This document shows positions 57,750 to 57,900 of a DNA stretch of 64,000 bases, piece by piece (the first letter of the stretch is position 1; each line of letters starts with the position of its first letter). Under the pieces are notes generated by a model. That model did no database searches, was not told the DNA's origin, and saw only the letters and a list, made by a program, of their open reading frames with translations. Made by a program: the position numbers and the translations under genes. The stretch lies in NCBI RefSeq assembly GCF_003334315.1, contig NZ_QOWR01000003.1; one strand, 5' to 3'. The DNA comes from Escherichia coli. GTDB lineage: Bacteria; Pseudomonadota; Gammaproteobacteria; Enterobacterales; Enterobacteriaceae.

Positions 57750-57789
57750 GTCTGTATTTCCTTATCCAAAGTATGGAGAAGTTAACATT

Positions 57790-57900
57790 ATGTTTCACAA
57801 CTTCATAGTGTCTGGAAGTATTATTTTTATGACAAAGGAAATACTTTGCGCAAATATTTTTTGTTTGATTACCAGCGAAACGTTTCTCTTATTTAAATAA
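57790..57900 (+). CDS. Candidate small hydrophobic ORF (36 codons), unverified
   Basis: ATG at 57790 preceded by GGAGAA with 9-nt spacing; product MFHNFIVSGSIIFMTKEILCANIFCLITSETFLLFK; lies in the iraP promoter/leader region on the opposite strand. Confidence 0.15.
   Translation: MFHNFIVSGSIIFMTKEILCANIFCLITSETFLLFK

Follow-up and report, generated by a model that had tools for sequence, protein, structure and literature searches.

The window, the whole 64,000-nt stretch of Escherichia coli DNA analysed here, carries, in inverted orientation, the phoA-iraP-ddlA region of E. coli. The gene for the anti-adaptor protein IraP (iraP, 57489–57749, minus strand), which the conserved elements described below would serve, and ddlA (58212–59306, plus strand) are separated by a spacer of 462 bp (57750–58211) with a G+C content of 34%. 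On the plus strand of this spacer lies an open reading frame (ORF) of 36 codons, running from ATG to TAA (57790–57900) and preceded by a Shine-Dalgarno (SD)-like motif, GGAGAA (57775–57780). A sequence-only reading of the region had offered two accounts of this candidate: a short, hydrophobic, possibly membrane-bound protein or, equally, a chance ORF in a promoter region.

Anatomy and Annotation of the 36-Codon Frame

The candidate begins with ATG at 57790–57792 and ends with TAA at 57898–57900, its conceptual product being MFHNFIVSGSIIFMTKEILCANIFCLITSETFLLFK. GGAGAA is separated from the ATG by 9 nt (57781–57789, GTTAACATT); the match to the anti-SD core is limited to GGAG, and the 11 nt between GGAG and the ATG are toward the upper limit of workable spacings. 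On re-reading of the sequence, the motif, the 9-nt spacer, the start codon, the length, the stop codon, and the translation proposed earlier were all found to be exact, as was the placement of the frame on the strand opposite to iraP inside a 462-bp AT-rich divergent spacer. Over the ORF itself, the G+C content is 21%–32% (in 100-nt windows). The sequence of E. coli MG1655 is identical to the candidate (NC_000913.3, complement[401235..401345]). The frame remains open further upstream, and the mechanically defined ORF spans 57634–57900, with a TTG at 57634 and in-frame ATG codons at 57736, 57748, 57790, and 57829.

No feature is annotated between ddlA and iraP in the MG1655 RefSeq record, which carries the small proteins ykiC, ykiD, and ytiB (18–39 amino acids) within 20 kb. 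Across 60 genomes chosen to cover the identity range, PGAP annotates nothing at the position of the candidate, and neither the exact 36-amino-acid peptide nor its O157, O55, and T7 variants (T7 being a tract-length allele described below) occur in a collection of 15 billion proteins. A 50-codon extension (57748–57900, plus strand), whose ATG overlaps the iraP start codon in antisense, does appear as an unnamed "hypothetical protein" in approximately 60 older GenBank E. coli contigs, among them those of O104:H4 HUSEC41, O157:H7 G5101, O55:H7 RM12579, and APEC O78; these sequences form a cluster of six members (e.g., EGR64687.1 and AGC85817.1). The 50-amino-acid form is absent from the PGAP/RefSeq records sampled, and forms of 54 and 88 amino acids are absent from the 15-billion-protein collection.

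A "hypothetical protein" that PGAP does annotate in the spacer was considered as a possible record of the candidate and rejected; it corresponds to a different ORF at 57931–58134 on the minus strand. This 67-amino-acid, TTG-initiated ORF (WP_001300163.1) belongs to a cluster of 677 members from E. coli and Shigella and is annotated by PGAP in most E. coli; in ST131, UTI89, DA61218, SC434, and OkiPb01711 an internal stop or a frameshift has led to its being marked as a pseudogene. The DNA beneath it can be aligned within Escherichia only, and this ORF of the spacer, too, is probably spurious or decaying.

The spacer has also been interrupted in individual strains. In a wild-boar E. coli isolate (NZ_CP053787.1, 922416–923993), the 801-bp iraP-ddlA stretch that corresponds to 57450–58250 of the window is split into two pieces lying approximately 780 bp further apart, and an IS1B transposase is annotated within the matched interval, marking an IS1 element inserted within or beside the iraP-ddlA spacer. 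NZ_CP119441.1 matches only positions 521–801 of the same 801-bp query, and NZ_CP040664.1 matches only positions 1–80 of a 181-bp query, which indicates that the spacer contains the breakpoint of a rearrangement or deletion in these two E. coli genomes.

Variation, Chance Expectation, and Coding Signature

Twelve sequences spanning E. coli were aligned over the candidate ORF, and the three point changes found among them (S10G, T15A, and a stop at K36) include no synonymous change. The ORF also contains a homopolymer tract of six thymines (T6, 57857–57862) that is polymorphic in length in E. coli. The T6 allele is present in 5,056 of 5,426 complete genomes, so that the frame is intact in approximately 93%; the T5 allele, found in 72 complete genomes, cuts the product to 25 amino acids, and the T7 allele, found in 205 complete-genome records (counted with a 76-nt query and read via identity bands), replaces the last 12 residues. 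Strains with T7 include the type strain ATCC 11775, CFT073, UTI89, and Nissle 1917, together with ATCC 25922, APEC O1, IHE3034, and ABU 83972. These two frameshifts therefore remove the product from whole successful lineages of E. coli.

A search with IraP as the query yielded 80 orthologous iraP loci, one per species, at which the frame could be followed outside E. coli. It is broken in all six of the other Escherichia species-level genomes examined. Codon 9 is TGA in both E. whittamii and Escherichia sp. E1V33, and the C-terminus is frameshifted in E. albertii and at the loci designated L006, L007, and L008; a palindrome that encodes SETFL in the candidate is read as QRNVSLI in the frameshifted Escherichia (AKRFSYL in L008). 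Frame-disrupting indels in close relatives, which the sequence-only reading had named as evidence against a gene, are thus present both within E. coli (T5 and T7) and among its congeners. Beyond Escherichia, one genome of Citrobacter amalonaticus has a stop at codon 9, and C. sedlakii has no ATG, the frame from the aligned GTG ending at codon 18. A frame in the same phase is open in the Citrobacter NCU1 group, in C. koseri, and in Salmonella arizonae/diarizonae, and its peptides there are hydrophilic (GRAVY −0.9 to +0.05). Comparison of the orthologous iraP loci of more distant genera revealed no corresponding ORF.

The open Citrobacter and Salmonella frames were weighed as evidence of coding and rejected on the basis of dN/dS, the pattern across codon positions, and the loss of hydrophobicity. 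Over 22 ungapped codons in 18 sequences, the numbers of variable columns at first, second, and third codon positions are 14, 14, and 12, and the summed pairwise differences are 859, 1,006, and 526, third positions varying least. Values of dN/dS (Nei-Gojobori) for the candidate against three open-frame Citrobacter/Salmonella lineages are 0.63, 2.0, and 1.38, no better than those for two alternative frames. In the same genome pairs, iraP has a dN/dS of 0.10–0.14, and its dN of 0.08–0.10 compares with 0.35–0.53 for the candidate. The comparison of synonymous with nonsynonymous changes, suggested at the outset as a test for coding, accordingly returned no signature, and neither dN/dS, nor codon positions, nor the changes within the species give any sign of purifying selection on the candidate peptide.

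How far the candidate departs from chance depends on the property considered. After dinucleotide shuffling, 54% of the randomized 462-bp spacers contain an ATG-initiated ORF of at least 36 codons, and 5% contain such an ORF with an SD-like tetramer; the window contains 19 SD-led ATG ORFs of 30–60 codons, of which 12 have at least 36. These rates and counts make the combination of ORF and SD ordinary. The GRAVY of the candidate is 1.22, whereas open-frame shuffles of its bases give 0.48 ± 0.34 and approximately 1% of them reach 1.22; none of the other 18 SD-led ORFs of 30–60 codons in the window has a GRAVY of at least 1. The candidate, then, does not exceed chance in its ORF plus SD and does so marginally in its hydrophobicity, which is its sole unusual property. 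Its best 19-residue Kyte-Doolittle window scores 1.66, borderline for a membrane helix, with K16 and E17 in the middle of the stretch. Outside E. coli, hydrophobicity is kept only at the locus of the closest relative, L007 (GRAVY 0.92), where the C-terminus is frameshifted.

Conserved Blocks and Putative Control Elements Upstream of iraP

An alignment of the 175 nt upstream of iraP in 81 sequences was used as a phylogenetic footprint. Conservation is arranged in blocks, which comprise the iraP Shine-Dalgarno sequence, a TGnTAACnT motif, an A/T block, and the palindrome (57889–57875 in this alignment). The core promoter of iraP is placed in the −10 region at 57779–57792 (minus strand), where there are two overlapping candidates for the −10 element itself: CATAAT (57792–57787) and an extended −10-like TGnTAACTT (57787–57779), the latter 30–38 nt upstream of the iraP ATG. 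The TG, T−12, A−11, and T−7 of TGnTAACnT are each conserved at approximately 0.9 across the 81 sequences, the intervening positions being free, which is the pattern that an extended −10 would be expected to leave. A consensus scan also finds a weak −35-like hexamer, CAGACA (57809–57814, minus strand), 16 bp from CATAAT. Just upstream of the −35 position lies the A/T-rich block ATAAAAATAATACTTC (57815–57830, minus strand), which resembles an UP element and may act as one; its identity ranges from 0.6 to 0.99 across the 81 sequences, at all three codon positions of the candidate frame. The transcription start of iraP can be placed provisionally from consensus and conservation.

The translation initiation signals proposed for the candidate coincide with this promoter. 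Its ATG is the complement of the CAT in CATAAT, and its GGAGAA pairs with TTCTCC on the minus strand, where the iraP −10 region ends and the discriminator lies. The A/T block encodes candidate codons 9–14 ("SIFM"), and the palindrome encodes codons 29–33; these two segments, which give the peptide its look of conservation, are the A/T block and the palindrome, in which the DNA is conserved at all three codon positions.

On the candidate's own strand, the consensus scan revealed no sigma-70-like site upstream of the SD. Two promoter-like matches were found on the plus strand, both of which would initiate transcripts downstream of the ATG at 57790, and no terminator for the candidate was found. 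An Rfam scan of 57000–58700 at a permissive threshold gave no match, and a known sRNA or riboswitch was thereby ruled out. A type I toxin-like locus was also considered and rejected for want of a terminator, of any repeat or antisense RNA signature, and of conservation.

The palindrome, CCAGCGAAACGTTTCTCTTA (57872–57891, with the core GAAACGTTTC at 57877–57886), resembles an operator of the LacI family; 17 of its 20 bases agree with TCAGCGAAACGTTTCGCTGA, the rbsD operator of the ribose repressor RbsR as read from MG1655. It occurs once in the 64-kb window. With up to one mismatch allowed in the 10-bp core, the site is present in 59 of the 80 species, 121–138 nt upstream of the iraP ATG, in the genera Escherichia, Citrobacter, Salmonella, Enterobacter, Lelliottia, Kosakonia, Phytobacter, and Yokenella, as well as in Klebsiella oxytoca. 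Relative to an operator built of the half-sites AGCGAAAC and GTTTCGCT, the iraP-proximal half is perfect and the distal half carries one or two mismatches; the proximal half-site, GTTTCGCT, is almost invariant across loci. PurR and Cra were considered as binders of the palindrome and appear less likely, their consensus half-sites being GCAAAC and TGAAAC, respectively, compared with the observed GCGAAAC.

The T5/T6/T7 tract sits between the RbsR-like site and the iraP promoter, so that the spacing of these two elements is altered by 1 bp in T7 strains. The T7 lineages (the uropathogenic CFT073 and UTI89, and Nissle 1917) thus differ by 1 bp from K-12 in the arrangement of the elements.

Another short conserved block, TATAA..AAAGTTATG (57935–57950, plus strand; loci L010–L020), lies approximately 190 nt upstream of iraP in Escherichia, Citrobacter, and Salmonella. 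Beyond this block the upstream neighbour of iraP differs, being ddlA in Escherichia only. In Salmonella, iraP has been described as having a distal PhoP-dependent promoter with a 218-nt leader (Zwir 2012, PMC3335776), and the PhoP boxes of that promoter fall in the neighbourhood of the TATAA..AAAGTTATG block. Measured against the 218-nt leader, the palindrome in Salmonella would be situated approximately 80 nt downstream of the distal start and upstream of the proximal promoter.

Binding of the palindrome by RbsR would bear on RpoS. A 2024 study of Salmonella found that deletion of rbsR lowers RpoS protein and leaves rpoS transcription unchanged, and that deletions of rbsR and of iraP share a phenotype in growth on succinate; the authors proposed an unknown indirect route and did not connect rbsR with iraP (PMC10965054). 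Our search of the literature found no link between RbsR and iraP or yaiB, and a genomic SELEX summary gives five RbsR sites, which are not named there. From the sequence and its conservation, 57872–57891 might be a functional RbsR operator, through which the ribose repressor would control iraP directly throughout the Enterobacteriaceae, a proposal to which we give somewhat less than even credence. If it is correct, ribose availability would be tied to RpoS stability through IraP, a carbon-source input would be added to the anti-adaptor network that sets RpoS stability, and the missing step in the effect of Salmonella rbsR on RpoS (PMC10965054) would be supplied. Since RpoS falls without RbsR, the regulator would have to act positively at iraP, and for a LacI-family repressor both positive action and a site approximately 100–110 bp upstream of the inferred start would be unusual. 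A direct link between RbsR and iraP is a plausible hypothesis, and it may already be contained in existing data.

Interpretation and Comparison with Known Systems

Taken together, the frame disruptions, the absence of a coding pattern among the substitutions, and the coincidence of the SD and ATG with the complement of a promoter make it highly probable that the 111-bp frame is a chance ORF lying over the iraP promoter and its upstream control region, and we judge it not to be a gene. Of the two accounts first offered, the chance ORF in a promoter region has held up, and the small membrane protein has not. The function of the DNA beneath the frame would belong to the other strand, where it provides iraP with a promoter and an upstream control region. 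The proposed order, outward from iraP, is its ribosome-binding site, the core promoter (57792–57779), the UP-like block (57815–57830), a variable spacer containing T6, and the RbsR-type operator, with the reverse complement of the candidate ATG and SD contained in the putative −10 region. The frame would be open in E. coli because these control elements happen to be free of stops in that phase, and it would read as hydrophobic because the plus strand there is rich in thymine. As a counterpoint, some Citrobacter and Salmonella share an open frame in this phase, more often than would be expected of fully independent random sequences; homology, together with the stop-free conserved blocks, accounts for much of this sharing.

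Three other explanations were weighed. Many intergenic small ORFs of E. coli give ribosome-profiling signals without being conserved, and the candidate could be translated occasionally when pervasive transcription of the iraP promoter region, antisense or divergent, runs across it, yielding a functionless peptide under no selection. Everything in the sequence pattern fits a peptide that evolves neutrally, but the plus-strand transcripts suggested by the promoter-like matches would begin past the ATG at 57790 and leave at most the ATG at 57829 (23 codons), and we regard such translational noise as unlikely.

Less probable still, and in our view decidedly so, is a young small hydrophobic membrane protein restricted to E. 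coli, initiated at the ATG at 57790 with the GGAG beginning at 57775 and functional only in T6 lineages. Its frame is intact in the 5,056 T6 genomes, its hydrophobicity stands above the composition null and is unique among the SD-led ORFs of the window, and its GGAG lies within usable distance of the ATG. Such a protein would nevertheless have been lost by frameshift from the lineages of CFT073, UTI89, Nissle 1917, and the type strain, as well as from T5 strains, and from every other Escherichia species examined. It shows no synonymous excess, its hydrophobic stretch is broken by K16 and E17, its own strand has no promoter-like site upstream, its initiation region would be the core promoter of iraP, and it is missing from the curated set of K-12 small proteins.

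That the real gene is a longer frame, antisense to the 5′ end of iraP and encoding 50 amino acids from the ATG at 57748 or 88 from the TTG at 57634, is extremely improbable, since the identical GenBank entries for the 50-amino-acid form are unnamed automatic calls never made in the PGAP/RefSeq records sampled, the 54- and 88-amino-acid forms have no entry in the protein collection, all frameshifts and stops of the short form are carried along, and E. whittamii, E. albertii, and the Citrobacter NCU1 group lack the N-terminal extension, which in Salmonella and C. sedlakii terminates after 5–6 residues.

With the frame read as a by-product of the iraP control region, the candidate is of no importance as a gene, and the value of the locus resides in the conserved RbsR-type site. 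It does show how a promoter in T-rich DNA, mirrored on the other strand, can present an SD-like motif together with a start codon and a hydrophobic frame. Any tag on the candidate, or its deletion, would damage the regulation of iraP.

The iraP promoter is reportedly a sigma-70 promoter activated by ppGpp/DksA. The elements proposed here agree with the known promoter in locus and in the logic of the strand, with a −10 region placed 25–45 nt upstream of the ATG and followed by an A/T-rich stretch ahead of the start, and their conservation reaches deep across the Enterobacteriaceae. The palindrome shares with the RbsR operator of rbsDACBKR, a LacI-family site, the central CG, the two-fold symmetry, and a perfect GTTTCGCT(GA) half-site. 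It differs from that operator in its degenerate distal half-site, which reads AGAGAAAC or AGAAAAAC in place of AGCGAAAC, and in its position some 100–110 bp upstream of the inferred start and not over the promoter, which makes simple repression by occlusion unlikely.

The candidate resembles validated small membrane proteins of E. coli of up to 50 amino acids (e.g., AcrZ, KdpF, and the set of Weaver 2019, which includes YkiC and YkiD) in its length, hydrophobicity, cysteine, and SD-like motif. In contrast to them, it has no conserved frame, no purifying selection, and, in the consensus scan, no transcription unit of its own, and its hydrophobic stretch is split by charged residues; YkiC, YkiD, and YtiB are entered in the curated K-12 record, and the candidate is not. 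A parallel may also be drawn with the nonconserved intergenic smORFs of the Enterobacteriaceae, the "cryptic microproteome" (PMC11188072; Stringer et al., bioRxiv 10.1101/2021.07.02.450978). Like these smORFs, the candidate is short and restricted to one lineage, lies in AT-rich intergenic DNA, and has neither homologues nor annotation.
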